A DNA stretch of 13,451 nucleotides. It comes from a virus. Taxonomy: Duplodnaviria > Heunggongvirae > Uroviricota > Caudoviricetes. Under the pieces are notes generated by a model. It made no database searches. It worked only from the letters and a program-made list of their open reading frames with translations, and was not told the DNA's origin. Numbering within the stretch: the first letter of the stretch is position 1; each line of letters starts with the position of its first letter. A program made the translations under genes and the position numbers. Where the stretch lies: the IMG/VR virus record IMGVR_UViG_2565956627_000012; one strand, given 5' to 3'. This document shows positions 1 to 13,451 of this stretch, piece by piece.

Positions 1-1239
1 ATGAGCAGGGCAATTCATAGACTTAGCGACACTCTTTTACGAAAATTAAGCGGATCACCAACCACAAAAAGCACCTTTTTTAATGATGGTGGCAATCTTA
101 GCGTAAGGCATTCAATCAATGGCCTGTTAACCTGGTATTTCACTTACAGGGCCGGAACTGGTAGGCAGATATCACCGGAACGTCTGAGGCTGGGCAATTA
201 TCCCGATCTGAGCCTGAAAGCTGCCAGGGAAAAAGCGGCACAGTGTCGCGCCTGGCTGGCTGAGGGGAAAAATCCGCGCTATGAACTTAATCATGCTGTA
301 CAGGACGCGTTAGCCCCCGTGACGGTTAAGGAAGCGCTCACTTACTGGCTTGAATCGTACGCAAAGGAAAAGCGCACTGACTACGAATCACTGAAAAGCC
401 GGATCAATAAACACATAATTAGCCAGATTGGCGCTATGCCACTGGAAAAATGCGAGCTACGCCACTGGCTGGCCTGTTTTGACCAGCTTGCTAAGCGTAA
501 TCCGGTATCAGCCGGATTTTTGCTACAGGTATGCAAACAGGCGCTTAAGTACTGCCGAAAACGACGATACGCAATCAGCAACGTTCTTGATGATATGGTC
601 GTAGGTGATGTGGGGAAAAAAGCAGAAATAAGTGAGCGTGTACTGACAAACAAAGAGCTTGGAGAACTACTCCGCGCACTGGATGAAAAAATCTTCCCGC
701 CGTACTACAGCGCCCTAATTCGCCTCCTGATTGTTTTTGGATGCCGTACCACTGAGCTAAGGCGCTCTGAGGTGCAGGAGTGGGATTTTAAGGAAATGCT
801 CTGGACAGTACCGAAGGAGCACAGCAAAACGAAGGTCGCCATATTCAGACCAATACCGGAAAGCATTCTGCCGTTCGTCACGCAGCTGGTGGAGAAGAAC
901 AGGCACACGGGCTTATTGCTTGGAGAACTGAAAGGGCAATCATCCGTAGCAGAGTACGGAAGAACAGCGCACAGACGAATTAATCAAGCCCCCTGGACGT
1001 TACACGATATCCGGCACACATTTACAACCATGCTGAACGATTTAGGCGTGGATCCGCATATTGTCGAGCAGCTTACAGCCCACCAGATGCCAGGGATGCA
1101 ACGCGTCTATAACCACTCCCGTTATCTTGATGCAAAACGTGATGCTCTTAATCTATGGGTAGACCGTCTCGAGCTTCTCCAGAACAATGATGAAAAAGTC
1201 GTTGTTATGACCCCACGAATTTACACCCAAAATTCTTGA
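1..1239 (+). CDS. int: Tyrosine recombinase / site-specific integrase (P4-type)
   Basis: 412-aa ORF starting with ATG at base 1. The C-terminal catalytic region carries the tyrosine-recombinase signature: conserved Arg in 'GCRTTELRRSE', the HxxR box 'LHDIRHTF', and a candidate nucleophile Tyr in 'RVYNHSRYLD'. The N-terminal arm resembles P4-like integrases. Confidence 0.9.
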   Translation: MSRAIHRLSDTLLRKLSGSPTTKSTFFNDGGNLSVRHSINGLLTWYFTYRAGTGRQISPERLRLGNYPDLSLKAAREKAAQCRAWLAEGKNPRYELNHAVQDALAPVTVKEALTYWLESYAKEKRTDYESLKSRINKHIISQIGAMPLEKCELRHWLACFDQLAKRNPVSAGFLLQVCKQALKYCRKRRYAISNVLDDMVVGDVGKKAEISERVLTNKELGELLRALDEKIFPPYYSALIRLLIVFGCRTTELRRSEVQEWDFKEMLWTVPKEHSKTKVAIFRPIPESILPFVTQLVEKNRHTGLLLGELKGQSSVAEYGRTAHRRINQAPWTLHDIRHTFTTMLNDLGVDPHIVEQLTAHQMPGMQRVYNHSRYLDAKRDALNLWVDRLELLQNNDEKVVVMTPRIYTQNS

Positions 1240-1243
1240 CAAA

Positions 1244-1280
1244 TTACGGCTGTTTTTTCTTTAAGAGATTACAGCCGTGA
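1244..1280. promoter_or_regulatory. Inverted repeat ACGGCTGT-N17-ACAGCCGT immediately after the int stop
   Basis: An 8-bp perfect inverted repeat (1246-1253 and 1271-1278) with a T-rich 17-nt spacer. A TTGACA hexamer overlaps the int stop at 1236-1241. No T-run follows, so it is not a classical intrinsic terminator; it may be a protein-binding site or RNA structure. Confidence 0.25.
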
Positions 1281-1648
1281 ATAAAACGCTAAATATCGGT
1301 CAAGTTCGTTAATTTTTTATTTTTCAACCATCGAAAAAATTGAAATGCACCCTACTAAACCCTTATTAGCTATTTCTTGATTGTTCCAATACCTGATGGT
1401 TTATCTGTTTGTTTTTAATGAGATAATTCAAGCGTAATGCCAAATGACGACATTTTTTGTTGCGTCGCTTAAAAACTCGTGACACGATTTTAAACACTAA
1501 CGAGCTTCTACGAACCTTAGCGAACAAAGCCTTTAGCAAGGTTGTGTTTTTAATTTAAGAGGTGAAAAAGAATCTAAGTAATATCCGATCTCATATATCT
1601 ACAGCTAAGAGAAAAGTTTATATACGTAATTTTTATGTAGGTTTTTGT

Positions 1649-1858
1649 ATGCGTGAAATAAATGAAGATCGCGTAATCCGTGAGGATGAATGTCGTAAGT
1701 TAACTGGAGTGTGTCGCACTACACGCTACGAACTGGAGAAAAAAGGATGCTTTCCGTCACGTCTTAATCTGGGCGGTCGTTCTGTTGGTTGGCTGCTGTC
1801 CGAGGTTATGGAATGGGTTAAAAGCCGGGATCGCATTAATTCAGGTAAGGCAGCGTAA
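1649..1858 (+). CDS. alpA: AlpA-family (prophage CP4-57 regulatory protein-like) helix-turn-helix transcriptional regulator
   Basis: 69 aa counted from the internal ATG at 1649, with AGG 8 nt upstream; the longer ORF begins with GTG at 1562. The motif 'LTGVCRTTRYELEKKGCFPSRLNLGGRSVGWLLSEVMEWV' matches the AlpA/MerR-like HTH pattern (GGR-x-VGW...E...W), as recalled from family knowledge. Confidence 0.8.
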   Translation: MREINEDRVIREDECRKLTGVCRTTRYELEKKGCFPSRLNLGGRSVGWLLSEVMEWVKSRDRINSGKAA

Positions 1859-1878
1859 AGGGGGAGTATATGGCACAT

Positions 1879-1908
1879 AAAACAAAGGCGACCGGGGGCG
1901 GTCGCCAA
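1879..1908 (-). terminator. Rho-independent terminator for the leftward operon
   Basis: Perfect hairpin GGCGACCG-GGGG-CGGTCGCC at 1889-1908. Read on the minus strand it is followed by the T-rich tract TTTGTTTTAT (complement of 1879-1888). It lies about 60 nt downstream of the minus-strand stop at 1971 and stops read-through into alpA. Confidence 0.5.
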
Positions 1909-1970
1909 TGGGAAAACACTAAACATAAGCACGGGGATGATAGCCGCTATCAGGCTGGTGGGCAATGCAA

Positions 1971-2144
1971 TCAGTCTGGTTCAGTTCGTTGCCATACCTG
2001 CAATGAGCGCTTTTCCCTGTACTCTTTAAGGAATTGCTCAAGGGCAAAAGCACATGACGCGAATCTTTCTGATTCATGCTCTATCTTTCTGCGCCGTCTT
2101 TTCCGTGCCGGTGATAATGTTTTGGTCAATTCTTTATCGGTCAT
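1971..2144 (-). CDS. Small arginine-rich basic protein (hypothetical; candidate nucleic-acid-binding peptide)
   Basis: 57 aa from the ATG at 2144 (complement), preceded by AGGA with a 7-nt spacer; an alternative ATG lies at 2159. The protein contains the arginine-rich motif 'SPARKRRRRKIEHESER'. It is the second gene of a two-gene minus-strand operon with a downstream terminator. Confidence 0.4.
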   Translation of the reverse strand: MTDKELTKTLSPARKRRRRKIEHESERFASCAFALEQFLKEYREKRSLQVWQRTEPD

Positions 2145-2201
2145 TGTGTTGTCCTGCATAGCAATGCGCCGTAATACCTTACACCACGGCGCTGGTGATG
2201 G

Positions 2202-2381
2202 TTACTCCTGCTCTTTGGCTTTGCGGCGCTGGCGGCGTTTGATCTCGCCTTTTGCGGCAGTAACTAAAAAACCAGCGGTACTTTCGCCAGGTTCTTTAAG
2301 TTGCTCAATATCATCCATTACTTCATGTGGGATTCTGACAGTTGTCATTTGTGATTTTGCGTTCTTTGCACCAGTTGCCAT
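2202..2381 (-). CDS. Ribbon-helix-helix-like small DNA-binding protein (putative repressor/antitoxin-like)
   Basis: 59 aa from the ATG at 2381 (complement), with AGGAG 8 nt upstream. 'TTVRIPHEVMDDIEQL' fits a beta-strand followed by helix A, and 'GESTAGFLVTAAKGEI' fits the G-x-S/T turn plus helix B of the RHH (Arc/CopG/MetJ) fold. The C-terminus is basic. The longer six-frame ORF (to 2549) lacks an RBS and has an atypical N-terminus. Confidence 0.5.
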   Translation of the reverse strand: MATGAKNAKSQMTTVRIPHEVMDDIEQLKEPGESTAGFLVTAAKGEIKRRQRRKAKEQE

Positions 2382-2411
2382 TTCTGGATCTCCTAAAAAT
2401 TGGTGTATGTC

Positions 2412-2496
2412 AGTATACGCAAAAAAAATGATAAAAAAAGGCTTGAAGTGTATTTCACCAGTGAGTAAATTAAAAAGCAAAGGTGAAATACACCTG
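2412..2496. promoter_or_regulatory. Divergent promoter region with paired 12-bp inverted operator-like sites
   Basis: GTGTATTTCACC (2448-2459) and its reverse complement GGTGAAATACAC (2482-2493) are separated by 22 bp; 13 of 15 positions match when extended. A rightward promoter candidate is TTGAAG (2443-2448), 17 bp, TAAATT (2466-2471). A leftward -10 candidate is TATACT (complement of 2412-2417) upstream of the RHH gene. Confidence 0.35.
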
Positions 2497-2574
2497 AAAG
2501 AGCAACGCCCCGCAGTGCTCGCAACACATGCAGGGCGTCTAACCACCAACGATAGAAAGAGTATCGAGGTAGCT

Positions 2575-2778
2575 ATGAGAAATCATACCACACACCCGCA
2601 AGGGCGGGACTCGCACAACCTGAATAAATATATCTGGCGTTTTATCGCCCTGAGCACGGCACAACCGCGCGTGATTACCATTGAGGCCACCAGCGAACAG
2701 GAAGCACGCCAGCAATCCCCGGCTGGCTGCGTGATGGTATTCGCCGCCCGTATTCGTCAGGGGGTGAGTCATGCATAA
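2575..2778 (+). CDS. Hypothetical small protein (67 aa), first gene of the rightward replication operon
   Basis: ATG at 2575 with GAGG 5 nt upstream. Its stop overlaps the next gene's start (ATGCATAA). This is the 3' in-frame part of the long six-frame ORF 1870-2778, whose upstream portion is Cys/Ser-rich and antisense to RBS-supported genes. Confidence 0.4.
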   Translation: MRNHTTHPQGRDSHNLNKYIWRFIALSTAQPRVITIEATSEQEARQQSPAGCVMVFAARIRQGVSHA

Positions 2779-2998
2779 AATACCCTTTGATGTTCTTGTT
2801 CATTCTGAAAACGCATTAATCCGCGCAAAGGAAATGGACGCATTACTACTTAAGTTAATTGATGTGCCGGAAAGTGGCGATGAATCTGATTCAATGATGT
2901 TTTCTGCCGTGCGTACGCTATTAACGCCTGTTATTAATGAATTAAATACAGTGATGGCAATTCACGAGAATAATAAAGCGCAGCACACCGGAGAATAA
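2771..2998 (+). CDS. Hypothetical acidic small protein (75 aa)
   Basis: Start overlaps the upstream stop, indicating translational coupling. Composition is coding-like. No recognisable motif. Confidence 0.5.
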   Translation: MHKIPFDVLVHSENALIRAKEMDALLLKLIDVPESGDESDSMMFSAVRTLLTPVINELNTVMAIHENNKAQHTGE

Positions 2999-3003
2999 AA
3001 AAC

Positions 3004-3303
3004 ATGAAAAATAAAAATTCTGGCGTTACTGCCAGCGGCCCCGCTCGTCCTGAATTTATGAACGGCGATATTTACCGCGATAAATATGGCGGCATGGTAA
3101 CGATTAAAGGCGTGGCAGAACGGCGCATCACCTACCGCCGTGAAGGCTACGAATATGATTGCGTGATGCCTGTTTATCAGTTTCGGCGTGATTTTTCTCT
3201 GGTACAGGCAGCGCCCCGCAGTAAACCAACCAGCAGGGAGAAAGCACGCGCCAATATTCAGGAAATAAAAAAGATGCTTAACGTATTCAGGGGTAAAAAA
3301 TGA
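3004..3303 (+). CDS. Hypothetical protein (99 aa) immediately upstream of, and coupled to, the primase gene
   Basis: ATG at 3004 follows the upstream stop by 5 nt. Its stop overlaps the primase start (ATGA at 3300). Basic C-terminus. Confidence 0.5.
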   Translation: MKNKNSGVTASGPARPEFMNGDIYRDKYGGMVTIKGVAERRITYRREGYEYDCVMPVYQFRRDFSLVQAAPRSKPTSREKARANIQEIKKMLNVFRGKK

Positions 3304-5048
3304 AACTGGCACCGAACGTAAAAAAACAGCCACGCGGAATAAAACACAAAGACACAGAGGTAATTATTTTCGCGGGTAGTGATGCCTGGTCGCACGCGAA
3401 ACAATGGCAGGAGCAGGATGGCCCCGCATCCGGCGATAATGTGCCGCCTGTGTGGCTTGGGCCAAATCAGCTTGCCGAACTTGATGCGCTGAAAATTGTT
3501 CCGGATGGGAAAAAACGCGTAAGGCTGTACCAGGCCGGAGAACTGGATTTAGTGGAGACCAAAAAGATCGGTCAGAAGCTGGCGGCGGCAGATATTCAGG
3601 ATGCGAATTTTTACCCCGAAGGGGTGCACGGACAGAAATGTGAGAACTGGCGGCGCTATCTGAATGCTGAGCGTGAAAATATTGCCGCAGGGATCACCAT
3701 GCCGGAACAGAAAAAATCACAACTTTCACAGATGGCAGACAGTGAACGGGCACAGCTTCTTGCTTCCCGCTTTGATGGTGTCTGCGTCCATGCAGAAAGT
3801 GAAATCGTTCACGTATGGCGTGACGGGGTATGGTGTCCGGTCAGCACAATGGAACTGAGCCGCGAAATGGTGGCGGTTTATTCAGAACACGGGGCCACGT
3901 TCAGCAAGCGTGCAATTAATAACGCCGTTGAAGCGTTAAAAGTTATTGCTCAGCCAATGGGGGAGCCGTCCGGTGATTTGCTGCCGTTTGCCAATGGTGC
4001 GCTTGACCTGAGAACAGGGGAATTTTCCTCTCACCAGCCGGATAACTGGATCACCACACACAACGGCATTGAGTACACGCCGCCAGTACCAGGTGAGAAT
4101 ATCCGCGACAACGCGCCAAACTTTCATAAATGGCTTGATCACGCTGCCGGAAAAGACCCGGGCAAGATGATGCGCATATGTGCCGCGCTATACATGATTA
4201 TGGCGAACCGGTACGACTGGCAGATGTTTATTGAGGCCACCGGAGACGGCGGGAGCGGCAAGAGCACTTTCACGCACATAGCCAGCCTTCTGGCAGGGAA
4301 ACAGAACACCGTAAGCGCTGAGATGACATCACTCGATGATGCTGGTGGGCGTGCGCAGGTTGTCGGAAGTCGGCTTATTGTCCTGGCAGACCAGCCGAAA
4401 TATACAGGCGAAGGCACGGGCATCAAGAAAATCACGGGCGGCGACCCTGTGGAGATTAACCCGAAATATGAAAAGCGATTCACGACCATAATCAGGGCTG
4501 TGGTACTGGCGACCAACAACAACCCGATGATATTCACGGAACGGGCCGGAGGCGTGTCACGTCGTCGCGTGATTTTCCGTTTCGACAATATCGTCAGTGA
4601 GGCCGAAAAAGACAGAGAACTACCGGAAAAAATCGCGGCTGAAATCCCCGTCATTATCCGCCGCTTGCTGGCGAACTTTGCCAATCCTGAAAAGGCACGG
4701 GCTTTACTGATTGAGCAGCGTGACGGTGATGAAGCACTGGCAATAAAGCAACAGACGGATCCGGTTATTGAATTTTGCCAGTTCCTTAACTTTCTGGAAG
4801 AAGCACGCGGCCTGATGATGGGCGGCGGCGGTGACTCTTCCAGGTACACGACCAGAAACAGCCTTTACCGCGTCTATCTGGCGTTTATGGCGTATGTCGG
4901 CAGGAACAAGCCGCTGAACGTGGCTGAGTTCAGCAAAGCTATGAAGCCAGCGGCGAAAGTTTACGGACATGAATATATAACGCGCAGGATTAAAGGGATT
5001 ACGCAAACCAACGTGACAACAACAGACGACTGCGACGCGTTTTTATAA
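3300..5048 (+). CDS. Replication protein: primase / SF3-type helicase (phage-plasmid primase, P4-family-like C-terminal domain)
   Basis: 582 aa. Walker A P-loop 'GDGGSGKST' lies in the central/C-terminal part, and a Walker B-like 'RLIVLADQ' follows. Size and position (after alpA, before an iteron array) match satellite replication-initiator (Pri-Rep) genes. Confidence 0.85.
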   Translation: MKLAPNVKKQPRGIKHKDTEVIIFAGSDAWSHAKQWQEQDGPASGDNVPPVWLGPNQLAELDALKIVPDGKKRVRLYQAGELDLVETKKIGQKLAAADIQDANFYPEGVHGQKCENWRRYLNAERENIAAGITMPEQKKSQLSQMADSERAQLLASRFDGVCVHAESEIVHVWRDGVWCPVSTMELSREMVAVYSEHGATFSKRAINNAVEALKVIAQPMGEPSGDLLPFANGALDLRTGEFSSHQPDNWITTHNGIEYTPPVPGENIRDNAPNFHKWLDHAAGKDPGKMMRICAALYMIMANRYDWQMFIEATGDGGSGKSTFTHIASLLAGKQNTVSAEMTSLDDAGGRAQVVGSRLIVLADQPKYTGEGTGIKKITGGDPVEINPKYEKRFTTIIRAVVLATNNNPMIFTERAGGVSRRRVIFRFDNIVSEAEKDRELPEKIAAEIPVIIRRLLANFANPEKARALLIEQRDGDEALAIKQQTDPVIEFCQFLNFLEEARGLMMGGGGDSSRYTTRNSLYRVYLAFMAYVGRNKPLNVAEFSKAMKPAAKVYGHEYITRRIKGITQTNVTTTDDCDAFL

Positions 5049-5056
5049 TTTTAGAC

Positions 5057-5289
5057 AAAAGCCCTCTACCTCTTCTACCTTAAGAAAATAATTGCATATA
5101 TTTCATATGGATAGTTTTGGTAGATGGCAGGTAGAAGGCACTTAAAAGCCCTCTACACCCTCTACCATAATTCAGGGCATTTGTGAGGGGGTGGTAGATG
5201 ACAGGTAGAGGGCCAAAAAAGCCCTCTACCCCGCTGGAAACCGCGCCATTACTGACCTGAAAGATGATTAGGTAGAGAGGTAGAGGAGG
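5057..5289. repeat. Iteron array / putative origin of replication
   Basis: About 11 copies of the core CCTCTACC / GGTAGAGG in both orientations. Three copies of AAAAGCCCTCTAC(C/A) start at 5057, 5145 and 5217. Two copies of GGTAGATG(G/A)CAGGTAGA(A/G)GG sit at 5119-5138 and 5193-5212. An AT-rich block lies at 5081-5118. The array is directly downstream of the primase/helicase gene. Confidence 0.6.
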
Positions 5290-5334
5290 TGCACCACAAC
5301 CCAAAACTTTTTAAACACGAGGGTAAAAATAAAA

Positions 5335-5592
5335 ATGCACACTACAGAAAAACTTAACAATCAGAAGAAACCACACTACCGCGCTATTGACCTTACAGAG
5401 CACTGGCTGAGAGTGGCGATAAAAATCATCGACCGCAACACGGGGGAAGGATATGCGAAAGCACATCCTGAACTAATAAGCGCATTCATGACCACAGCGG
5501 CGGCAAACTTTGCCACGCTGACAGAACGGGAGATTGCCGAAGCGGAACAGGTAACAACCATCAACGTTAAAACCGGAGAGGTGGAATCATGA
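5335..5592 (+). CDS. Hypothetical protein (85 aa)
   Basis: ATG at 5335 with GAGGG upstream. Its stop overlaps the SSB-like start (ATGA). No recognisable motif. Confidence 0.5.
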   Translation: MHTTEKLNNQKKPHYRAIDLTEHWLRVAIKIIDRNTGEGYAKAHPELISAFMTTAAANFATLTEREIAEAEQVTTINVKTGEVES

Positions 5593-5999
5593 CAGCACAG
5601 ATAGCCGCTTACGGGCGGCTGGTGGCTGACCCGCAGTTAAAGACCACCAGCAAGGGCACACAAATGGCTATGGCAAGCATGGCGGTCCCCCTGCCGTGCA
5701 ATCAGGCAGATGACGGACAGGCGACGATGTGGTTATCCGTCCTGGCGTTTGGCAGACAGGCCGACGCACTGGCAAAACACCACAAAGGCGAGCTGGTGAG
5801 CGTGGCGGGTAACATGCAGGTAAGCCAGTGGACAGGCCAGAACGGCGAAACGCGGCAGGGCTGGCAGGTTATTGCAGACAGCGTAATCAGTGCCAGAACG
5901 GCGCGACCTGGTGGGAGCCGACGCAAGACCACAGGCACACAGGGTAATCAGCCACCAGCGGGAGGCGATGACCCTTACGGTGATGATATTCCGTTCTGA
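5589..5999 (+). CDS. ssb: Single-stranded DNA-binding protein (short SSB-like, OB-fold with acidic C-terminal tip)
   Basis: 136 aa. The N-terminus 'IAAYGRLVADPQLKTT...MAMASMAV' parallels the SSB OB-fold start. A Gly/Pro-rich linker 'RPGGSRRKTTGTQGNQPPAGG' is followed by the hallmark SSB tail 'DDPYGDDIPF' at the extreme C-terminus. Confidence 0.7.
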   Translation: MTAQIAAYGRLVADPQLKTTSKGTQMAMASMAVPLPCNQADDGQATMWLSVLAFGRQADALAKHHKGELVSVAGNMQVSQWTGQNGETRQGWQVIADSVISARTARPGGSRRKTTGTQGNQPPAGGDDPYGDDIPF

Positions 6000-6009
6000 G
6001 AGGGTGACG

Positions 6010-6267
6010 ATGGTACATGACCGCATAGCGGAAGAACTCGAGGCGAAAGGCTTTTACCGGAGAGCGTCGGCGCGATGGGGTGAAGTCATGCTACTGGTGG
6101 AGACAGACAAGGAACGGGAGCACATCACGATGCGACGGCTGGAATGTTGCAGAAAATCGACAAGGCCAGCACTCGGGCCGGACAATTTCAGCGATATTAA
6201 AAAAGCCGCTGATCGTGTTTATGCTGAAATGGGATTAGATAAATTAAAGGGGGAAACATGCCAGTAA
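6010..6267 (+). CDS. Small regulator-like protein, possibly PerC-family transcriptional activator
   Basis: 85 aa from the ATG at 6010, with GAGAGGG upstream. 'IAEELEAKGFYRRASARWGEVM...DKEREHITMRRLEC' resembles, from memory, the conserved core of PerC/Pch-like prophage regulators. Not verified by search. Confidence 0.4.
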   Translation: MVHDRIAEELEAKGFYRRASARWGEVMLLVETDKEREHITMRRLECCRKSTRPALGPDNFSDIKKAADRVYAEMGLDKLKGETCQ

Positions 6268-6518
6268 CCACAGAGGAAATTAAACGACACCGCGAATTAT
6301 TCGGCCTTGAACATCCGGCCCACACGACAACGGAGCGTTATCGCCAGCACCTGGCGGCGGGGGCGATATTCTGGGTTGATCATCATGGTTTTTTACGCAG
6401 CACGCTTTCCGGTGAAATTCTGGCGGCTGGTCCTGAACAGATTGATGCGCTCATCGCATATCTGGAAAAGGTGAAGCCCCGCACAGTGCAATCAGTACCA
6501 CCGGAAGACGTTAATTAA
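6258..6518 (+). CDS. Hypothetical protein (86 aa)
   Basis: ATG at 6258 preceded by a strong RBS AAGGGGG. It overlaps the upstream stop and is followed by a strong intrinsic terminator. Confidence 0.5.
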   Translation: MPVTTEEIKRHRELFGLEHPAHTTTERYRQHLAAGAIFWVDHHGFLRSTLSGEILAAGPEQIDALIAYLEKVKPRTVQSVPPEDVN

Positions 6519-6521
6519 TGG

Positions 6522-6552
6522 CCCAGCCCTGGTTTAACCAGGGCTTTTTTTG
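6522..6552 (+). terminator. Rho-independent terminator closing the replication/early operon
   Basis: Stem AGCCCTGG (6525-6532), loop TTTAA, stem CCAGGGCT (6538-6545), then a run of T at 6546-6551. Confidence 0.65.
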
Positions 6553-6575
6553 TCAGCTTTTGTAAATTATTTGTG

Positions 6576-6595
6576 CGTGGTTGTTCGTGGTTGTT
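6576..6595. repeat. Tandem direct repeat, 2 x CGTGGTTGTT
   Basis: Two perfect adjacent 10-bp copies in the leader upstream of the capsid gene. Confidence 0.3.
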
Positions 6596-6673
6596 CAGCG
6601 GCATGGCTGGCTTATTTTATCAGGCCCGAACCGTGGTTATTCTCGCCACTGTTGCCAGGACGCTGGGACCATT

Positions 6674-6712
6674 TTCCCGCCTGTTAATCTCATCAGCGTT
6701 AACAGGCGGGAA
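6674..6712. promoter_or_regulatory. 14-bp perfect inverted repeat TTCCCGCCTGTTAA-N11-TTAACAGGCGGGAA in the capsid-operon leader
   Basis: Perfect dyad at 6674-6687 and 6699-6712. No T-run follows on either strand, so a terminator is unlikely. It sits about 90 nt upstream of the capsid ATG and is a candidate operator, activator site or RNA structure. Confidence 0.35.
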
Positions 6713-6801
6713 GCCTGCATCGGTGTGCATTTCTTTTTGTTCTCGTACCGTGAGTCTTGCCGCGTCCTGGTGTTTTCCTCTTTGCATCAGGACTTTTTTT
6801 T

Positions 6802-7974
6802 ATGCCGAGAATTATCGAATTGCGCCAGCAGAAAACCGCCATCAAAAATCAGATGCGCGACATGCTGGAGAACGCGGAAAAAGAAAACCGCAGCCTTAAC
6901 GACGCCGAGGGCGCAAAATTTGACGAATTACGCGCTAAAGCTGAATCCCTCGATAAAGACATTTCCCGCCTTGAAGCCGTTGCCGACGAAGAGCGCAGCA
7001 AGCCAGGTAAAGCCAGCCAGACCACTGACCCCGCAGAACTTCGCAACTACATCGTAACGGGTGACGTTCGCTCATTATCCACCACCACCAACGGCGGCAA
7101 GGACGGTGGTTATACCGTTATCCCTGAGCTTGATCGCGAGGTTATGCGGTTACTGAGTGATGAAAGCGTCATGCGAATGATTGCGACCGTGAAAACGGCG
7201 AAATCAAACGAATATCAGAAACTGGTTTCCACAGGTGGCGCGGCTGTAAATTATGGAACCGAGGGCAGCAAGCGTAACGAAACCAACACCCCGAAAGTTG
7301 AGCGCGTAAGCATCAAACTTAACCCGATCTATGCCTACCCGAAAACCACACAGGAAATTCTGGATTTTTCAGAGGTGGACGTACTGGGCTGGTTATCGTC
7401 TGAAATCGCCGATACGTTCGCCACGACCGAAGAAGATGATTTTGTAAATGGTAATGGTACTGGCAAGCCGAAAGGTTTCCTGAGTTACAACCGAGATCTA
7501 ACCAACGACAAAACCCGCGCCTTTGGCACCATTGAAAAAATGGTAGCAGCAGCCGAAGCCGCCATTACAGCGGACGAACTGATCGACATCCTCTACAAGC
7601 TGAAAGCGAAATACCGTAAGAACGCCGTATGGGTGATGAACTCGAGCACAGCGGCAGCATTGCAGAAGCTGAAAAACCAGATCGGTGATTACGTATGGCG
7701 TGACAGCCTCAAAGAGGGCGCACCTGACACATTGCTGGGCCGTCCTGTTTATTACCTGGAAAGTATGCCGGACATCGGCAAAGGCAAAACGCCGCTGGCT
7801 GTCGGTGACTTTAAGCGCGGTTATTTCATCGTTGACCATGAAACGGGTATTCGTACCCGACCGGACAACATTACAGAGCCGGGTTTCTACAAGGTACACA
7901 CGGACAAATACATCGGCGGCGGGGTTGTTGACTCCCGCGCGATAAAAGTCCTCGAGATGAAAAACGGCGGTTAA
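6802..7974 (+). CDS. Major capsid protein, HK97 family, with N-terminal coiled-coil delta (scaffold-like) domain
   Basis: 390 aa from the ATG at 6802; the six-frame ORF starts at an upstream TTG. The N-terminal roughly 100 aa is charged and helical (delta-domain-like). The remainder has HK97-fold MCP character. No separate scaffold gene is present, consistent with HK97-type assembly. Confidence 0.85.
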   Translation: MPRIIELRQQKTAIKNQMRDMLENAEKENRSLNDAEGAKFDELRAKAESLDKDISRLEAVADEERSKPGKASQTTDPAELRNYIVTGDVRSLSTTTNGGKDGGYTVIPELDREVMRLLSDESVMRMIATVKTAKSNEYQKLVSTGGAAVNYGTEGSKRNETNTPKVERVSIKLNPIYAYPKTTQEILDFSEVDVLGWLSSEIADTFATTEEDDFVNGNGTGKPKGFLSYNRDLTNDKTRAFGTIEKMVAAAEAAITADELIDILYKLKAKYRKNAVWVMNSSTAAALQKLKNQIGDYVWRDSLKEGAPDTLLGRPVYYLESMPDIGKGKTPLAVGDFKRGYFIVDHETGIRTRPDNITEPGFYKVHTDKYIGGGVVDSRAIKVLEMKNGG

Positions 7975-7982
7975 CAGAAAAA

Positions 7983-8009: not shown

Positions 8010-8585
8010 ATGGGTGAAAAAAATATGAAAAAGAGCATGGAAATCCGGTCATCAGAAATCACCACCAGCGGAGCCAGTACGCTGACGGGTTACGTTGTTC
8101 GCTGGAATAACCTTTCTGATCTGCTATGGGGTGAGTTTTACGAAAAATTCCAGCGGGGGGCGTTCAGTGAGTGGCTGGCGGCGGGTAATGACGTTCGCGG
8201 CCTGTATGAGCACGACCACAGCATGTTACTGGGGCGTACCCGTTCCGGTACGCTGAAACTGGAAGAGGATGAAACAGGGTTACGCTTTGAACTGACCCCA
8301 CCGGATACCAGTACAGGGCGGGACGTTATCGAACTGGTTAAGCGTGGTGATATCTCGGGGATGAGCTTTGGCTTTCGTTCCCGTAAGGATGTATGGGATA
8401 CCACAACAGATCCATGCGTGCGCACCGTGCTGGTGGCGGAACTGTACGAAATTACCGTTACATCCGTACCGGCTTACCCTGATTCCGGCGTGGATCTGGC
8501 CCGCCGTTCCCTGTATGAGCAGCACCCCGAAAAAATGCCACGCGCGGATAATCGCCGCTGGTGGGCGGATTTAGCGGGGGTGTGA
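8010..8585 (+). CDS. Prohead maturation protease (HK97 family, peptidase S78/U35-like)
   Basis: 191 aa. A candidate catalytic His lies in 'LYEHDHS' and a candidate Ser in 'DISGMSFGF'. An alternative start ATG at 8025 has a better-spaced GGTGA. Its stop is followed 2 nt later by the portal start. Confidence 0.85.
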   Translation: MGEKNMKKSMEIRSSEITTSGASTLTGYVVRWNNLSDLLWGEFYEKFQRGAFSEWLAAGNDVRGLYEHDHSMLLGRTRSGTLKLEEDETGLRFELTPPDTSTGRDVIELVKRGDISGMSFGFRSRKDVWDTTTDPCVRTVLVAELYEITVTSVPAYPDSGVDLARRSLYEQHPEKMPRADNRRWWADLAGV

Positions 8586-8586
8586 T

Positions 8587-9801
8587 ATGTGGCCTTTCAG
8601 ACGAAAACAAGAGCATCGCAGCATGACGCTGGATGAATTTATGGCGCTGGCTGGCACATCGAACACGGGGGCGGGTGAGTACGTATCATCGGGGACAGCG
8701 GAATCACTCCCCGCCGTCATGAACGCCGTCACGGTCATCTCTGAGGCGGTGGCTACTATGCCATGCTACCTGTACCTGGTACGCAATGAGAAGGGGAAGG
8801 AGGCCCGCGAGTGGCTTGATTCTCATCCGGTCGATCATATCCTCAACGAGCGCCCGAACGCGTGGCAGACGCCCTATCAGTTTAAGCGAATGATGGTCCG
8901 CCACTGCCTGTTAAACGGTAATGCTTATGCGGTGATTCAGTGGGGGCGTGATGGTTTTCCGGTGGCTTTGCACCCTTACCCGCCGCAGTCGGTGAATGTT
9001 GAGCAGACAGGGGAACATAACTGGCGTTACCGCATCACTGACGCTTACAGCGGAAACACCCGCAACTATTTACCGTGGGAGGTTCTCCACCTTCGTTACT
9101 CCACGGATGACGGCTTTATGGGGCGCTCACCTGTGACCATCTGCCGCGAATCGCTGGGGCTTGGGCTGGCCCAACAGCGCCACGGCGCGAGCGTGATGCG
9201 TGATGGCATGATGGCAGCAGGGGTTATCACGTCAGGCGAATGGCTGGACGGCGTGAAGGGCAAACAGGCATTAGCCGCACTGGAACGCTACAAAGGAGCC
9301 AGAAACGCCGGAAAAACGCCCATTCTTGAAGGGGGTATGAGCTATCAGCGGCTTGGCATGAGTAACCAGGATGCTGAATGGCTGGCCTCCCGTCGCTTCA
9401 CCATTGAAGACATCGCCCGAATGTTCAACGTCTCGCCGATTTTTCTGCAGGAATACAGCAACAGCACCTACAGCAATTTCAGCGAGGCAAGCCGCGCATT
9501 TCTCACCATGACGATGCGCCCGTGGCTGGCGAACTTTGAGCAGCAGATAAAAAATGCTTTGCTGGTGGCCTCGCCTGTACCTGGTATCCGGTATCAGGTG
9601 GAGTTTGACAGCGCGGACCTGTTACGGGCCACACCTGGCGAACGCTTTGCCACCTATGAACGCGGCATCAAGTCCGGCGTTATGTGCCCGAACGAAGCCC
9701 GCGAACGTGAGGGATTATCGCCGCGTGATGGTGGCGATGAGTTCAGCCAGGCCTGGAAACAGGAGATCGAAGTAAAGGATGATAAAGAGGGCAAATCATG
9801 A
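8587..9801 (+). CDS. Portal protein (HK97-family-like)
   Basis: 404 aa. Size, position and sequence character fit a portal (for example 'FTIEDIARMFNVSPIFLQEYSNSTYSNFSEASRAFLTMTMRPW'). The stop overlaps the next start. Confidence 0.8.
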   Translation: MWPFRRKQEHRSMTLDEFMALAGTSNTGAGEYVSSGTAESLPAVMNAVTVISEAVATMPCYLYLVRNEKGKEAREWLDSHPVDHILNERPNAWQTPYQFKRMMVRHCLLNGNAYAVIQWGRDGFPVALHPYPPQSVNVEQTGEHNWRYRITDAYSGNTRNYLPWEVLHLRYSTDDGFMGRSPVTICRESLGLGLAQQRHGASVMRDGMMAAGVITSGEWLDGVKGKQALAALERYKGARNAGKTPILEGGMSYQRLGMSNQDAEWLASRRFTIEDIARMFNVSPIFLQEYSNSTYSNFSEASRAFLTMTMRPWLANFEQQIKNALLVASPVPGIRYQVEFDSADLLRATPGERFATYERGIKSGVMCPNEAREREGLSPRDGGDEFSQAWKQEIEVKDDKEGKS

Positions 9802-10136
9802 GAGCGGGGAGCATGAGGGATCGCATTGTCATCATGAGCGCGAAACTTTCCCGCCTCCCTTCCGGTGCAATGAAAAGCACATGGGAGGATGTTGCCACCG
9901 TATGGGCGGAGGTGAAAGGGATCAGCGGACGGGAACGCATGACCGCAGGTGCAGAAACGGCACAGGCAACCGTAAGAGTCTGGATCCGTTTTCGTGTGGA
10001 TGTTACGGCATCCAGCCGGATACGGGTACTCACGGGGGCTTATTCCGGCAATGAGCTTGATATTGTTGGCCCCCCCGTTCCCGACGGTAAAAGGACTCGT
10101 CTGGAAATTCTTTGTAAAACAGGTGCGCCACGATGA
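9798..10136 (+). CDS. Head-tail adaptor / head closure protein (Phage_H_T_join-like)
   Basis: 112 aa. Pattern 'DRIVI...W.DVATVWAEVKGISGRE...A....ATVRVWIRFRVDVT...RI......LDIV......G.RTRLEILC' matches the head-tail joining family as recalled. Start is translationally coupled (ATGA overlap). Confidence 0.65.
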   Translation: MRAGSMRDRIVIMSAKLSRLPSGAMKSTWEDVATVWAEVKGISGRERMTAGAETAQATVRVWIRFRVDVTASSRIRVLTGAYSGNELDIVGPPVPDGKRTRLEILCKTGAPR

Positions 10137-10429
10137 CAGCAGAATTAATCACCCTGGAAGAAGTGAAACTCCATTGCCGCATTGATGGCAATGAGGAAGA
10201 CCAGTTAATCAGCGGATACATCGCCGCCGCGCTTGAGGTGTGCCAGAAACACATCGGCAGGCGCTTTGATGACGGGCTGGAGTTCACGCCAGCCATAAAG
10301 ATTGGCTGCATGATGTACGTGTCGCAACTGTACGAATACAGGGCCACGGTCGGGGATGGAGACACAAAAGAAATCCCGCTGGCTGTAGGGATGCTCTGGT
10401 CGGTTTATCGTGATGTGGGGGTGTACTGA
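10133..10429 (+). CDS. gp6-like head-tail connector protein
   Basis: 98 aa. The N-terminal 'ITLEEVKLHCRIDGNEEDQLISGYIAAALEVCQ' matches the gp6-like connector family pattern (L.E.K.H.R.D...ED.LI...I.AA). Overlapping start/stop with both neighbours. Confidence 0.7.
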   Translation: MTAELITLEEVKLHCRIDGNEEDQLISGYIAAALEVCQKHIGRRFDDGLEFTPAIKIGCMMYVSQLYEYRATVGDGDTKEIPLAVGMLWSVYRDVGVY

Positions 10430-10869
10430 TGCCGTGGCAACCATTAAGACGATGCACAGAACCAGGCTGTAACAGGCGCGTTAAATCCGGCAAGTGTGAG
10501 GAGCACAGGCGGGCGGCATGGCGTGCAGAGGATGCCAGACGAGGACACCGCCGCGCGCGTGGGTACTCCAGACAGTGGGACAAATACCGCGCCATGTATC
10601 TGAGTAAAAATCCGTTATGCGTGCGATGCCTTGAGAAGGGGATATATACGCCCGCCGTGGTGGTGGATCACATTATCCCGATTAATGGCGGTGATGATGT
10701 TCTCTTCTGGCCCGAATGGAACCATCAACCATTGTGTCAGGCGTGTCATAACCAGAAAACGAAATGGCTTGATCCGGCAACAAAAAGCAAGCGTGCCGCA
10801 GGTGGATTTCGTGAAGAGGAAGAACGGGCCGCTAACCGCAATAACTGGATGTATGACGCTGATGAATGA
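10429..10869 (+). CDS. HNH endonuclease (terminase-associated, cos-phage type)
   Basis: 146 aa. An N-terminal Cys cluster 'CTEPGCNRRVKSGKCEEH' is followed by the HNH core 'VDHIIPINGGDD...NHQPLCQACHNQKT'. It sits directly upstream of the terminase genes, as in HK97-like cos phages. Confidence 0.85.
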   Translation: MPWQPLRRCTEPGCNRRVKSGKCEEHRRAAWRAEDARRGHRRARGYSRQWDKYRAMYLSKNPLCVRCLEKGIYTPAVVVDHIIPINGGDDVLFWPEWNHQPLCQACHNQKTKWLDPATKSKRAAGGFREEEERAANRNNWMYDADE

Positions 10870-11035
10870 GCGGGAACAAAACCGCCTTATCCGTGGACTT
10901 ATAAGGCAGCGTGACGCATGGAAGACACAGGAAACAGGGCATAAAGATAAAGCGTCAGGACGCGCAGAACGCATCACAGCGAAGCGATTAACCGACCGTG
11001 ACCGCGAGGTTATGGAATGTTTCCGCAATCGCTGA
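10862..11035 (+). CDS. Possible small basic ORF (57 aa) between HNH and terS; uncertain
   Basis: ATG at 10862 overlaps the HNH 3' end. The product is Arg/Lys-rich ('MNEREQNRLIRGLIRQRDAWK...'). No convincing RBS. It is the only candidate filling the 290-bp gap. Confidence 0.25.
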   Translation: MNEREQNRLIRGLIRQRDAWKTQETGHKDKASGRAERITAKRLTDRDREVMECFRNR

Positions 11036-11044
11036 TGAGGCTGT

Positions 11045-11075
11045 ATGACGGGGTGGGGGGGGCGTTTTCAGGACA
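11045..11075. other. Putative cos (cohesive-end) region
   Basis: G-rich block ACGGGGTGGGGGGGGCGTTTTC (11048-11069) in the HNH-terS gap. It resembles lambdoid cosN-proximal sequence (ACGGGGCGGCGACCTCGCGGGTTTTCGC) as recalled. Location is typical for cos in HNH-dependent packaging systems. Confidence 0.3.
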
Positions 11076-11159
11076 AACCCGACCCCGCCGGGCACCGAAC
11101 GCCTCCTCAAATTTTTATGCACGGGAATTTTTTGAAAAATAATCTGACGAAAAATAAGC

Positions 11160-11516
11160 ATGGCAAGACCACCGAAAGCCCCCGCCTACCTGGATGATAT
11201 CGCCGTGAAGCAGTGGCGGGAAAAATCGCGGCAGCTTGCGGAACGGGGAGACCTGACCCCCGCCGACTGGAGCAATCTGGAACTGTATTGCGTCAACTAC
11301 TCCATTTACCGGAAAGCCGTTGCAGACCTTGCGGCGCGCGGGTTCAGCATTGTTAACAGTCAGGGCGGCGAGAGCAGAAACCCCGCATTAAGCGCAAAAT
11401 CCGACGCTGAAAGAGTGATGATAAAAATGGCCTCCTTGCTCGGTTTTGACCCGATAAGCCGCCGTAAAAATCCACCGGAAACAGAAGAAGAGGACGAGCT
11501 TGACCGCCTGGAATAA
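11160..11516 (+). CDS. terS: Terminase small subunit (P27 family-like)
   Basis: 118 aa. The pattern 'W.NLELYCVNYSIYRKAVADLAARGFSI...G..RNPA....SDAERVMIKMASLLGFDPISRRK' matches the P27-family TerS signature as recalled. It lies directly upstream of terL and overlaps it. Confidence 0.8.
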   Translation: MARPPKAPAYLDDIAVKQWREKSRQLAERGDLTPADWSNLELYCVNYSIYRKAVADLAARGFSIVNSQGGESRNPALSAKSDAERVMIKMASLLGFDPISRRKNPPETEEEDELDRLE

Positions 11517-13161
11517 GTACGCAGAAGACGTAAAAACGGGCAAAATTCCGGCCTGTAAACGGTTAAAACAGGCTGTTAAACGGTACTTTTCGGACCTTAA
11601 AAGCCCCCTTTACACGTTCGATCGTGAGGTTGTGGAGCGGTTTATTGCCTTTTCCAGGGTGTGCCCGCACGTAAAAGGACCGATGCGTGGCAGACCCATT
11701 GAGCTGGAGCCGTGGCAGCAGTTCGCCTTTGCGTGCATCCTCGGCTTTAAGGTTAAGGCCACCGGACGGCGCAAATACACGAGCGCCTTTATCGAAGTGC
11801 CGCGCAAAAATGCGAAATCCACGACCGCCGCGATTCTGGCTAACTGGTTTCTGATTATGGAGAACGGTCAGCAGGATATCTACACCGCAGCGGTGAGCCG
11901 TGACCAGGCGCGGATCGTCTTTGATGATGCGCGTCAGATGTGCCTTTTATCCCGACCGTTACGCAGGCGGGTGAATATTCAGGCGCATAAGGTGATACAC
12001 CCGAAAACCAACAGCCTGTTAAAGCCACTGGCAGCAAAAGCGGCAACCATTGAGGGGACAAACCCGAGTCTTGCCATTGTGGATGAATATCACCTGCACC
12101 CAGACAACGGGGTTTATTCCGCACTTGATATGGGGATGGGCGCACGTCCCGAAGGGCTGTTATTTGCCATTACCACATCGGGCAGTAACGTCGTTTCAGC
12201 CTGTAAGCAGCACTATGATTATTGCTGCCAGATCCTGGACGGCGAAGAGGTCAACGATTCAATTTTTGTACTGATTTACGAACTGGACGACGAAAACGAG
12301 GTTGATGATCCGGCGATGTGGATAAAGGCTAACCCTAACATCGATGTTTCCGTCGATCGTGAAAAACTGGCCTCAACCATCCAGAAAGCGCGGGGTATTC
12401 CGTCGCAATGGGTGGAAATGCTCACCAAGCGATTCAATATCTGGTGTCAGGGGGCTACGCCGTGGATGGGTAACGGTGCATGGGCGGAGTGTGCCGGAAC
12501 GTTCGCGGAGGCGGATTTATACGGGCAGGAGTGCTACGCGGGGCTGGACTTATCATCAACCAGCGATATTTCCAGCGTGTGCTATGCCTTCCCGGTCGGT
12601 AAAAAGATTATGCTGGTTTCCCGTCACTATCTGCCGGAATTTCAGCTACAGAATCCCGCCAATAAAAACCGCGCCATCTATCGCCAGTGGGTAAAGGCGG
12701 GCTGGATACGCACAACACCGGGTGACTGCATTGATTATGACCGTATCCGTGATGACATCATGGCGGATGCAGAGAATTTCAATATCAGGCTGGTGGGCTT
12801 CGATACATGGAACGCCACGCACCTGAGGACGCAGTTACAGGGCGCAGGATTTGAGGTGGAGCCGTTCCCGCAAACCTACCTCAGATTCAGTCCGGCGGCG
12901 AAATCGTTCGAAGTTTTTGTTAACCGGAAGGTGATTGTGCATCGTGGTGATCCGGTGCTGGCCTGGTCAATGAGTAATGTTGTGATGCAGAGTGACGCGA
13001 ACGCCAATATCAAGCCGAACAAGAAAAAATCATCCAACAAGATAGACCCGAGCGTTGCGGCGCTGATGGCGTTTGGCACATTCCAGGCAGAGCACGAGGA
13101 CTTTGCATTCGATATGAGCGACAGCCACAAAGAGCGGCTTGCGGCGTTTGATGGGGTATGA
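11500..13161 (+). CDS. terL: Terminase large subunit (Terminase_1-like ATPase plus nuclease)
   Basis: 553 aa. Conserved N-terminal block 'WNKYAEDVKTGKIPACKRLKQAVKRYFSDL...YTFD'. A P-loop-like 'VPRKNAKSTTAA' and Walker B-like 'LAIVDEYHL' are present. The apparent start is TTG at 11500, with GAGGA 5 nt upstream, overlapping the terS 3' end. Confidence 0.9.
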   Translation: MTAWNKYAEDVKTGKIPACKRLKQAVKRYFSDLKSPLYTFDREVVERFIAFSRVCPHVKGPMRGRPIELEPWQQFAFACILGFKVKATGRRKYTSAFIEVPRKNAKSTTAAILANWFLIMENGQQDIYTAAVSRDQARIVFDDARQMCLLSRPLRRRVNIQAHKVIHPKTNSLLKPLAAKAATIEGTNPSLAIVDEYHLHPDNGVYSALDMGMGARPEGLLFAITTSGSNVVSACKQHYDYCCQILDGEEVNDSIFVLIYELDDENEVDDPAMWIKANPNIDVSVDREKLASTIQKARGIPSQWVEMLTKRFNIWCQGATPWMGNGAWAECAGTFAEADLYGQECYAGLDLSSTSDISSVCYAFPVGKKIMLVSRHYLPEFQLQNPANKNRAIYRQWVKAGWIRTTPGDCIDYDRIRDDIMADAENFNIRLVGFDTWNATHLRTQLQGAGFEVEPFPQTYLRFSPAAKSFEVFVNRKVIVHRGDPVLAWSMSNVVMQSDANANIKPNKKKSSNKIDPSVAALMAFGTFQAEHEDFAFDMSDSHKERLAAFDGV

Positions 13162-13451
13162 CGAGAATGAGCGAAACCGAACTACTAAAAATAATCCGCC
13201 GTGTTACCGGAGCCAGCCAGACAGCAGACAAACAGGAGGCCACGCAGCCGGACAGCGTGATAGCCGAAAATTACGCGCGTGTGGTGGCTGAGGTGATGCG
13301 CCGTGACGGTATTGAGCTTAACGGCGTGGATATGCGCAACATACGAACCAGAGTCCTTGAGTTGCTGGCATACCGTCGCCGTTCTCAACAACGGAGGGAG
13401 AGCGCGAAAAATACTTATCAGTGGAAGAAGCCGGAACGGTTGCGGCGGTAA
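13158..13451 (+). CDS. Hypothetical protein (97 aa) translationally coupled to terL
   Basis: ATG at 13158 overlaps the terL stop (ATGA); an alternative ATG lies at 13167. The stop TAA is the last three bases of the window. Basic C-terminus; no recognisable motif. Confidence 0.45.
   Translation: MTRMSETELLKIIRRVTGASQTADKQEATQPDSVIAENYARVVAEVMRRDGIELNGVDMRNIRTRVLELLAYRRRSQQRRESAKNTYQWKKPERLRR

Follow-up and report, generated by a model that had tools for sequence, protein, structure and literature searches.

The stretch of DNA analysed here is the 13,451-nucleotide (nt) viral record IMGVR_UViG_2565956627_000012, and we refer to the whole of it as the window. It begins at the ATG of an integrase gene, ends at the stop codon of its last open reading frame (ORF), and carries 20 genes, all on the plus strand and nearly gapless. 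We searched the 20 plus-strand ORFs against Pfam and NCBIfam, the ORFs of unclear function against PHROGs as well, and the nine longest minus-strand ORFs and one overlapping plus-strand ORF against Pfam. We are highly confident that the window holds the genes of a 14,459-bp capsid-forming phage-inducible chromosomal island (cf-PICI), which lies between cspD and clpS in Escherichia coli and is a mosaic closely related to EcCIEDL933, the experimentally characterized prototype of the family. The latter is a 15.4-kb element of E. coli O157:H7 EDL933, described in the founding cf-PICI paper (Alqurainy et al., 10.1101/2022.09.08.507074). We located EcCIEDL933 in the EDL933 chromosome (contig L093, 20329-34760) and compared the two elements protein by protein, using tblastn for the capsid. 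The features on which the assignment depends are the following.

1-1239, plus strand: tyrosine integrase of 412 amino acids (aa) (PF00589 Phage_integrase and PF13356 Arm-DNA-bind_3)
1649-1858, plus strand: AlpA-family regulator/excisionase of 69 aa, as called in RefSeq relatives (PF05930, E 1.2e-15; phrog_2790)
3300-5048, plus strand: primase-helicase (pri-rep) of 582 aa (D5_N, DUF5906 and Pox_D5; phrog_864 DNA primase, E 3e-163)
5057-5290, no strand: replication origin, with iterons in both orientations round an AT-rich core (repeat families D1-D3; GGTAGARG count)
6802-7974, plus strand: HK97-fold major capsid protein of 390 aa with an N-terminal delta (scaffolding) domain (PF05065, E 3e-70; TIGR01554; PDB 9gyi)
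8010-8585, plus strand: prohead serine protease, S78 (PF04586, E 1e-47; TIGR01543 proheadase_HK97)
8587-9801, plus strand: portal (PF04860, E 3e-91; TIGR01537 portal_HK97; PDB portals 9lbn and 8cez)
9798-10136, plus strand: head-closure protein, Hc1 (PF05521 Phage_HCP, E 1.5e-23; TIGR01563 gp16_SPP1)
10133-10429, plus strand: gp6-like head-tail connector, Ad1, taken as portal-facing (PF05135 Phage_connect_1, E 1.7e-10; TIGR01560)
10429-10869, plus strand: HNH endonuclease, the terminase's packaging accessory (PF01844)
11036-11159, no strand: HNH-terS intergenic region, probable cos (near-identical to the EcCIEDL933 region)
11160-11516, plus strand: small terminase subunit TerS, P27 family (PF05119 Terminase_4; TIGR01558 sm_term_P27)
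11500-13161, plus strand: large terminase subunit TerL, with a TTG start (PF03354 TerL_ATPase and PF20441 TerL_nuclease)

The left end of the window holds the integrase, AlpA and primase-replicase module that is common to classical PICIs. An initial annotation, made from the letters of this DNA, had named an integrase, AlpA and a primase/helicase with iterons, and Pfam, NCBIfam, PHROGs and an iteron count place all of them where it had put them. The label of phrog_2790 is excisionase and transcriptional regulator; a GTG at 1562 provides an alternative AlpA start and a protein of 98 aa. Directly 3' of the primase gene, the motif GGTAGARG occurs seven times, every copy within 5063-5286, against an expectation of 0.31 copies, and none of 200 shuffles reached that number. 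The primase resembles the EcCIEDL933 replicase over its first 160 aa only, with D5_N/DUF5906 in the island where the prototype has DUF927. The replicase module has thus been swapped.

The right half of the window is a head and packaging module. Every NCBIfam model of HK97 type passes its curated cut-off (338.8 bits against 27.5 for the capsid model TIGR01554, major_cap_HK97), so that the complete HK97-type head and packaging set proposed from the raw sequence is borne out. The capsid gene itself was recognized correctly, and its start is at 6802 rather than at the TTG at 6757 that had been favored. The island capsid matches PDB entry 9gyi at E 5e-173. Since the EcCIEDL933 capsid matches the full 385-residue chain of that entry end to end at E 7e-257, we take 9gyi to be the EcCIEDL933 capsid. 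The delta domains of the two capsids are almost identical. We equate Hc1 with the "head-tail adaptor" of the cf-PICI papers and infer that it faces the tail. Presumably, cos lies between hnh and terS (11036-11159), a placement that we take from HK97-type HNH/terminase phages. Compared by eye with its EcCIEDL933 counterpart, this intergenic DNA shows a 2-nt difference in a run of G, one substitution, and one A indel; a position-by-position count of 77/145 was thrown off by the indel. Such near-identity suggests that the cos site is probably the same as that of the prototype. The genes between 6802 and 13161 run capsid-protease-portal-connectors and then hnh-terS-terL, which is the order described for Proteobacterial cf-PICIs (10.1101/2022.09.08.507074). 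HNH and terminase genes indeed follow the head adaptors directly, as the initial annotation had pointed out; phage Evi has tail genes there instead.

No scanned ORF matched a tail, baseplate, holin, endolysin, or CI/Cro family in Pfam, NCBIfam, or PHROGs, which agrees with the earlier claim that tail, baseplate, lysis, and phage repressor genes are absent. The sole caveat concerning a repressor is a PHROG label, "transcriptional repressor", at the C-terminus of a 302-aa ORF (1870-2778), where NCBIfam finds an Icd-like domain. The minus-strand ORFs, up to 236 aa in length, matched no Pfam family and were treated as spurious.

The cfPICI model of SatelliteFinder comprises 11 core components and forbids tail and holin; portal, adaptor, connector, and TerL are what separates cfPICI from PICI in that scheme. 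All 11 core components are found in the island, and neither forbidden one is. The island corresponds to cfPICI "Type A", which the SatelliteFinder authors found only in Proteobacteria. These components, and their colinearity with EcCIEDL933, support the cf-PICI lifestyle that the raw-sequence reading had proposed, with the behavior itself expected from homology. The same data make it extremely improbable that the island is a classical PICI or a P4-like satellite that remodels the capsids of a helper phage. Classical E. coli PICIs do share the int-alpA-pri module, and the C-terminal domain of the primase approaches the P4-family model TIGR01613, scoring 104.7 bits, slightly below the cut-off of 108.7. 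However, the PICI model forbids portal, adaptor, and connector, all of which are present here, together with the island's own capsid, protease, and TerL. A P4-like satellite is further opposed by the full head module and by the lack of any Sid, Psu, or Delta-type match among the ORFs scanned with Pfam and PHROGs.

To establish the limits of the element, contigs with window DNA were found by exact-protein look-ups. Two of them, L097 (GCA_012770715.1) and L095, match the window over all 13,451 nt at 100% identity. Window-identical contigs carry macA, macB, and cspD on the left and clpS, clpA, a tRNA match, and infA on the right, the names macA, macB, and infA being drawn from Pfam families and E. 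coli gene order. Extension into these flanks, which the initial annotation had proposed as a check, reveals a 17-bp direct repeat, ATGATAGTTAT[T/C]TATCA, that constitutes the attachment (att) sites. Both fall outside the window: attL lies 184-168 nt upstream of the integrase ATG, and the attR repeat lies 825 nt downstream of the window end. With cores at L097 3016-3032 and 17475-17491, the element measures 14,459 bp and is an att-bounded, chromosomal island within the family size of about 10-15 kb. When the flanks are rejoined, many E. coli chromosomes match the resulting 1,098 nt without interruption at 100% identity, and 5,057 of 5,426 complete E. coli genomes cover at least 80% of this sequence in a single match. 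This precise empty-site match fixes the boundaries, identifies the host as E. coli, and argues against a contiguous tail or lysis module. A target had been expected, but its guessed nature, a tRNA or the 3' end of a gene, gives way to the cspD-clpS intergenic region. A tRNA as the integration target was considered and rejected; the window has no tRNA, and the nearest tRNA match, past clpA, is unrelated. In the window-identical contigs L007, L009, and L097, neither 10-kb flank contains a called phage gene outside the island, and the right flank is clpS-clpA, which answers the proposed check that no tail or lysis genes lie within about 10 kb downstream. The related contigs L003, L004, and L006 have some other mobile DNA past clpA. 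Also 3' of clpA is a single CRISPR-DR4 repeat detected by Rfam (L007 14061-14088), and one strain has cas1 there (L099 20857-21173). We take these to belong to the type I-F CRISPR locus that E. coli is known to have between clpA and infA, unrelated to the island.

These boundaries also bear on the idea that the window is no satellite but the decayed remains of a prophage whose tail, lysis, and immunity regions have been deleted. Its head and packaging genes are phage-derived, and its adaptor is 63-64% identical to the adaptors of real lambdoid phages, as such a remnant would require. Against that stand the clean att repeats, the empty site in 5,057 genomes, and genes that are all intact and of full length relative to those of a functional prototype. 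Likewise, the left half is a PICI int-alpA-pri module and not a CI/Cro-O/P region, and neither the element nor the 10 kb to either side of it has the tail, lysis, and CI/Cro modules of a temperate HK97-like prophage. We also scanned relatives of the capsid, one genome per species, and examined the best 80 of 162. The colinear module recurs in nearly all of these 80 loci, across Enterobacterales, Pasteurellaceae, and Orbaceae. The span from int to TerL is mostly 12.5-15.9 kb; several Pasteurellaceae loci, whose integrase matches reach only 22-25%, have a span of about 8-9 kb. Independent deletions would not yield a compact architecture that is kept over so many loci. Finally, the capsid lineage is at most 38% identical to the capsids of the full-size phages listed. 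Taken together, these observations leave a decayed prophage as a very unlikely account of the window.

The capsid matches in the phage database point the same way as the cf-PICI assignment. Those of at least 59% identity come from vB_KppS-Ant (16.5 kb), Pmp8 (15.3 kb), a 3.8-kb fragment, and a 106-kb Klebsiella record; the other phages among the capsid matches listed reach at most 38%, full-size phages standing at about 34-38%. Judged by their size and by the similarity of capsid and connector, LR881103.1 (vB_KppS-Ant) and OR544139.1 (Pasteurella phage Pmp8) look like cf-PICIs that were recovered from induced lysates and deposited as phages. Within E. coli, 1,942 of the 5,426 complete genomes (about a third) share some island DNA; in 28, the shared part amounts to at least 80%. 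For comparison, cf-PICIs have been reported in approximately 13% of Enterobacteriaceae genomes, and hundreds have been catalogued by SatelliteFinder. The island is thus an ordinary E. coli member of a family that has already been described, and not a novel kind of element.

Gene order is the same in the island and in EcCIEDL933 from int to the last small ORF, the sizes are similar (14.5 kb and 15.4 kb), and every gene of the island is of full length relative to the prototype, with no frameshift or truncation. Amino acid identities vary widely along this shared map. They are 100% for TerS and for a 60-aa ORF that precedes it, 99.3% for HNH, 96.5% for the portal, 95.3% for the protease, and 94.9% for TerL; 84% for a DUF4222 protein, 82% for the single-stranded DNA-binding protein (SSB), 77% for the integrase, 74.5% for the connector, and 74% for a PerC-family protein; and 69.5% for the capsid, 66% for AlpA, and 51% for the adaptor (head-closure protein). 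Capsid, adaptor, and connector are therefore far more diverged than the genes that flank them. The packaging proteins, at 51-100% identity, fall within the published range, which is 50-90% or more similarity to EcCIEDL933 for the proteins of cf-PICI packaging modules. The two elements differ in their integration sites (roxA/phoQ for EcCIEDL933, cspD/clpS for the island), in their replicase domains, and in the gene content 3' of alpA.

Near-identical islands also occur at other sites, where they are bounded by core genes without tail genes: at uvrB/bioD in strain ZH063, and at roxA/phoQ in IAI39 and EDL933. The ZH063 cf-PICI has the same gene set as the window and is 95% identical to it at the nucleotide level over 100% of the window; the integrase protein of the ZH063 island is identical. 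The IAI39 cf-PICI also has the same gene set, with 93% nucleotide identity over 87% of the window, but its integrase is of the EDL933 type and about 80% identical at the DNA level. Six attB sites have been published for cf-PICIs in the founding paper (10.1101/2022.09.08.507074). Many assemblies have the integrase protein of the island at cspD/clpS and ZH063 has it at uvrB/bioD, and the two junctions have only about 9 bp in common, ATGA[C/T]AGTT (L097 compared with L001, approximately 7815-7835 and 22745-22760). The use of two attB sites by one integrase suggests a relaxed core requirement or a secondary site. It also indicates recent movement, since the islands at the second attB are near-identical and carry an identical integrase.

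The right arm of the element comprises the 824 nt between the window end and attR (L007 10295-11118) and is non-coding: its ORFs are all short (32-73 aa), none was called as a gene in the contigs examined, and it has no Rfam match. An Rfam scan of the window and right flank gave no match inside the island. The right arm is 99.9% identical in ZH063, and it is 100% identical among islands whose capsid-portal regions are only about 76% identical. Right arm, attP, and int have probably been exchanged together, as one module, in the circular form.

Given the divergence of the head-tail interface, we compared its two proteins with those of phages and of other cf-PICIs. The Hc1 of the island is 63-64% identical to the Hc1 proteins of the siphophages Evi and phi467 (38-41 kb, lambdoid), as against 51% for that of EcCIEDL933. 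Connector matches of at least 69.7%, on the other hand, come from vB_KppS-Ant (16.5 kb), a 1.6-kb fragment from an EDL933 host, and a 106-kb Klebsiella record, and the others listed are at most 38% identical. Judged from these similarities, the tail-docking face looks like a swapped module in which Hc1 is phage-like and the connector is cf-PICI-specific. The likeness to Evi and phi467 extends to an HK97-type capsid, protease, portal, Ad1, and Hc1. In Evi, however, neck, tail-completion, major-tail, and tape-measure genes follow directly after the adaptors. Phages of the Evi/phi467 kind are approximately 40 kb long, have lysis genes, and are ordered terS-terL-portal-protease-capsid, whereas the island is capsid-first with hnh-terS-terL last.

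Adaptor and connector decide which tails fit cf-PICI heads, and mosaic alleles of the two are functional and represent the normal route by which cf-PICI tail specificity changes (10.1101/2025.02.11.637232). The packaging modules of EcCIGN02175 and KpCIDSM30104 are reported to be highly similar outside the adaptor and connector genes, on which tail specificity depends. Compared with EcCIEDL933, the two are given adaptor/connector identities of 40%/61% and 35%/63%, as against 51%/74.5% for the island, so that the island's pair is probably an allele pair distinct from those of EcCIGN02175 and KpCIDSM30104, judging by the reported identities rather than by sequences. The divergence of capsid, connector, and adaptor from EcCIEDL933 makes a different tail compatibility and a different helper range likely. 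Hc1 may therefore be a distinct tail-docking allele. A tail donor of the Evi/phi467 type, to which adaptor similarity would lead, was not relied on; the EcCIEDL933 adaptor, used for calibration with its known helper HK106, failed to recover that helper, and we do not trust the lead on that account.

Several points weigh against the identification of the island as a functional cf-PICI. The parts most diverged from EcCIEDL933 are its capsid and its adaptor. The maturation motif SxGxxAD, reported for the capsids of EcCIEDL933 and HK97 (10.1101/2025.02.11.637232), reads STTTNGGKD in the island capsid (at about residues 92-105), with a two-residue insertion, and processing of this capsid is consequently not sure to match that of EcCIEDL933. 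In the calibration mentioned above, the top phage matches of the EcCIEDL933 adaptor were Klebsiella prophages at 54%, and the 25 records listed did not include HK106. No function could be assigned from Pfam, NCBIfam, or PHROGs to five small ORFs and to the N-terminal two-thirds of the 302-aa ORF. Last, it is by homology that we attribute to the island induction, small capsids, a cos site, and a dependence on tails, its helper dependence, capsid size, tail donor, and cos position being carried over from EcCIEDL933 and related cf-PICIs. In EcCIEDL933 the maturation motif is STGVPAD, and the protease is nonetheless 95% identical between the two islands.

Some of these points would fit an island that is a cf-PICI by descent but an immobile relic, stranded by incompatible mosaic parts or by the loss of its helper. 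The mobility of the island is predicted from its genes, the capsid and adaptor look recombined in among neighbors of 95-100% identity, and the maturation motif departs from the consensus. Against a relic stand the lack of frameshifts and truncations and the many copies of the exact capsid protein, which is indexed in 199 blocks of a public assembly collection; the six places inspected are all cspD/clpS. The recent movement indicated by the second attB speaks against immobility as well, and the published functional mosaic adaptor/connector alleles show that a mixed interface is no bar to function. We therefore regard an immobile relic as unlikely. We encountered no contradiction of the cf-PICI assignment at the sequence level, and every feature of the family that sequence can reveal is present in the island. 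Neither outcome that the initial annotation had named as refuting its proposal was observed: in the window-identical contigs, tail, lysis, and CI/Cro-type genes do not follow beyond 13451, and the head genes do match HK97-family models.

A further set of elements lies in the leader of the packaging operon.

6525-6801, plus strand: packaging-operon leader (hairpins, TTGTTCG-like repeats, inverted repeat)

The packaging genes form a separate transcription unit behind a hairpin at 6525-6552 that resembles an intrinsic terminator and is followed by a run of T. Downstream of it, a TTGTTCG-like repeat occurs three times at a spacing of 10 bp (6570-6597), and a 14-bp inverted repeat without mismatches follows (6674-6712). 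A 10-bp hairpin with U8 behind it then abuts the capsid ATG (6764-6801). Folding gives z-scores of -3.8 for the final 55 nt and -4.3 for the leader as a whole. Arrays of three to four TTGTTCG repeats with 10-bp phasing are present in the left att arm, in the right att arm, and upstream of the capsid operon (L009 9836-9950, L007 10985-11045, and 6570-6597 of the window), and in both arms two GGTGTAGTTAAT repeats of arm type lie beside them. The same leader elements precede the capsid gene of EcCIEDL933, which keeps all three arrays (L093 27870-27900, 20255-20310, and 35470-35530) despite identities of only 77% for Int and 66% for AlpA; the pre-capsid array is also kept in a third island type. 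These arrays may be a common binding array, perhaps for AlpA or Int, that ties excision to head-gene expression. A window-wide enrichment of the 8-mer GTTGTTCG was examined and rejected, with 11 matches against 13.3 expected at one mismatch; only the phased clustering stands out.

In other genera, hairpins with unrelated stems, GGTTTC/GAAACC and CTGCATG/CATGCAG, occupy the same pre-capsid spot, and 30 of 73 distinct sequences upstream of the capsid fold at z < -2. The purine-rich 3' arm of the hairpin is positioned where a ribosome-binding site would be expected. The hairpin could gate capsid production, at the level either of translation or of termination. The element may act as an RNA hairpin or as a DNA palindrome, stem variation within a type looking slight by eye. 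The available portions of the founding (2022) and 2025 cf-PICI papers make no mention of such a hairpin or TTGTTCG gate. Only tentatively, then, do we put forward the joint proposal that the island's distinct tail-docking allele represents a new tail-specificity class and that the capsid operon of Enterobacterales cf-PICIs is gated by a TTGTTCG array and a hairpin; we think this combination is possible but doubtful. In Pseudomonas aeruginosa, AlpA is a Q-like antiterminator that contacts DNA through residues 128-142 and whose N-terminal segment enters the RNA exit channel (PMC7969949, PMC9371919). A corresponding role for the island AlpA, reading through the hairpin-U8, was considered and judged appealing but weak: the protein has only 69-98 aa, and the hairpins of other genera mostly lack a U-run.

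The remaining genes of the window are small.

1870-2778, plus strand: 302-aa ORF in the variable region 3' of alpA, with an Icd-like C-terminus (NF033153, phrog_6196)
2771-2998, plus strand: 75-aa protein (phrog_2196; no Pfam, NCBIfam, or PADLOC match)
3004-3303, plus strand: DUF4222 protein of 99 aa (PF13973, E 1.7e-24)
5335-5592, plus strand: 85-aa protein (phrog_1231; 78% identical to its EcCIEDL933 homologue)
5589-5999, plus strand: SSB (PF00436; TIGR00621 above cut-off)
6010-6267, plus strand: PerC-family transcriptional activator of 85 aa (PF06069, E 7e-36)
6258-6518, plus strand: 86-aa protein (phrog_1957)
10853-11035, plus strand: 60-aa protein between HNH and TerS (phrog_3173)
13158-13451, plus strand: 97-aa protein, the last gene (phrog_1561)

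The gene 3' of alpA is variable among cf-PICIs (Alqurainy et al., 10.1101/2022.09.08.507074). In the 302-aa ORF that occupies this position, NF033153 (phage_ICD_like; NCBIfam name, host cell division inhibitor Icd-like) matches residues 254-297 and phrog_6196 matches residues 211-301, while residues 16-144 are 74% identical to a hypothetical protein of EcCIEDL933. The ORF thus looks as if a hypothetical protein of the EcCIEDL933 type had been fused to an Icd-like domain. Other gene callers, given identical DNA, report a reverse 59-aa ORF (minus strand, 2202-2381) and a 67-aa Icd-like ORF; in ZH063 the reverse ORF is called YlcI/YnfO and the region 3' of alpA is annotated as Icd-like pseudogene fragments. 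The PerC annotation is present likewise in ZH063, IAI39, and EDL933. PADLOC found no defence genes in the accessory ORFs. The 60-aa ORF is probably "hypothetical gene 1792" of EcCIEDL933, given a numbering that follows from the capsid as gene 1786 and from gene order.

The behavior expected of the island follows from work on other cf-PICIs. Induction by a helper, small capsids of their own, and the need for tails have been demonstrated for EcCIEDL933, EcCIGN02175, and KpCIDSM30104 only. For EcCIEDL933, alpA and a helper are needed for induction and transfer, and mutation of any packaging gene, HNH included, abolishes transfer, the exception being gene 1792, whose loss severely reduces it (10.1101/2022.09.08.507074). 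The helper's own head genes are dispensable for this transfer, and helper tail mutants abolish it. The cf-PICI capsid has T=4 symmetry and a diameter of 47.5 nm, and the DNA-filled heads are released without tails and bind free tails later (10.1101/2025.02.11.637232).

By analogy, the tyrosine integrase would hold the island at attB, at the core ATGATAGTTAT[T/C]TATCA, until a helper phage turns on alpA, whereupon AlpA would drive excision and the expression of island genes. The primase-helicase would then fire the iteron origin 3' of its own gene, aided by the island SSB. The HK97-fold capsid with its delta domain, the S78 protease, and the portal would assemble small T=4 heads, for which a genome of about 14.5 kb is the expected size. 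TerS, TerL, and HNH would cut concatemers at the cos between hnh and terS and fill these heads, into which only the approximately 14.5-kb island genome would fit. The connector (Ad1) and the head-closure protein/adaptor (Hc1) would finish a tail-less, DNA-filled head. Such a head would become infective only after docking a free siphophage tail, either from a co-resident helper or from the lysate of another phage, a process called "tail piracy".

A reading of the raw sequence alone sufficed to recognize this satellite, and its exact limits are now given by attL, attR, the 14,459-bp element, and the cspD/clpS attB. The novelty that the initial annotation had implied is not upheld, since the family was described in 2022-23 and its particle structure and "tail piracy" in 2025. 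What remains of interest is the particular allele combination and a few regulatory details. The island is a naturally occurring mosaic: its capsid and its tail-facing adaptor have been exchanged, while portal, protease, and terminase remain approximately 95-100% identical to those of the prototype. It is thus a handy natural variant for asking which residues set capsid size and tail compatibility. If the proposed gate on the capsid operon is real, the TTGTTCG array and the hairpin could couple excision to head production.

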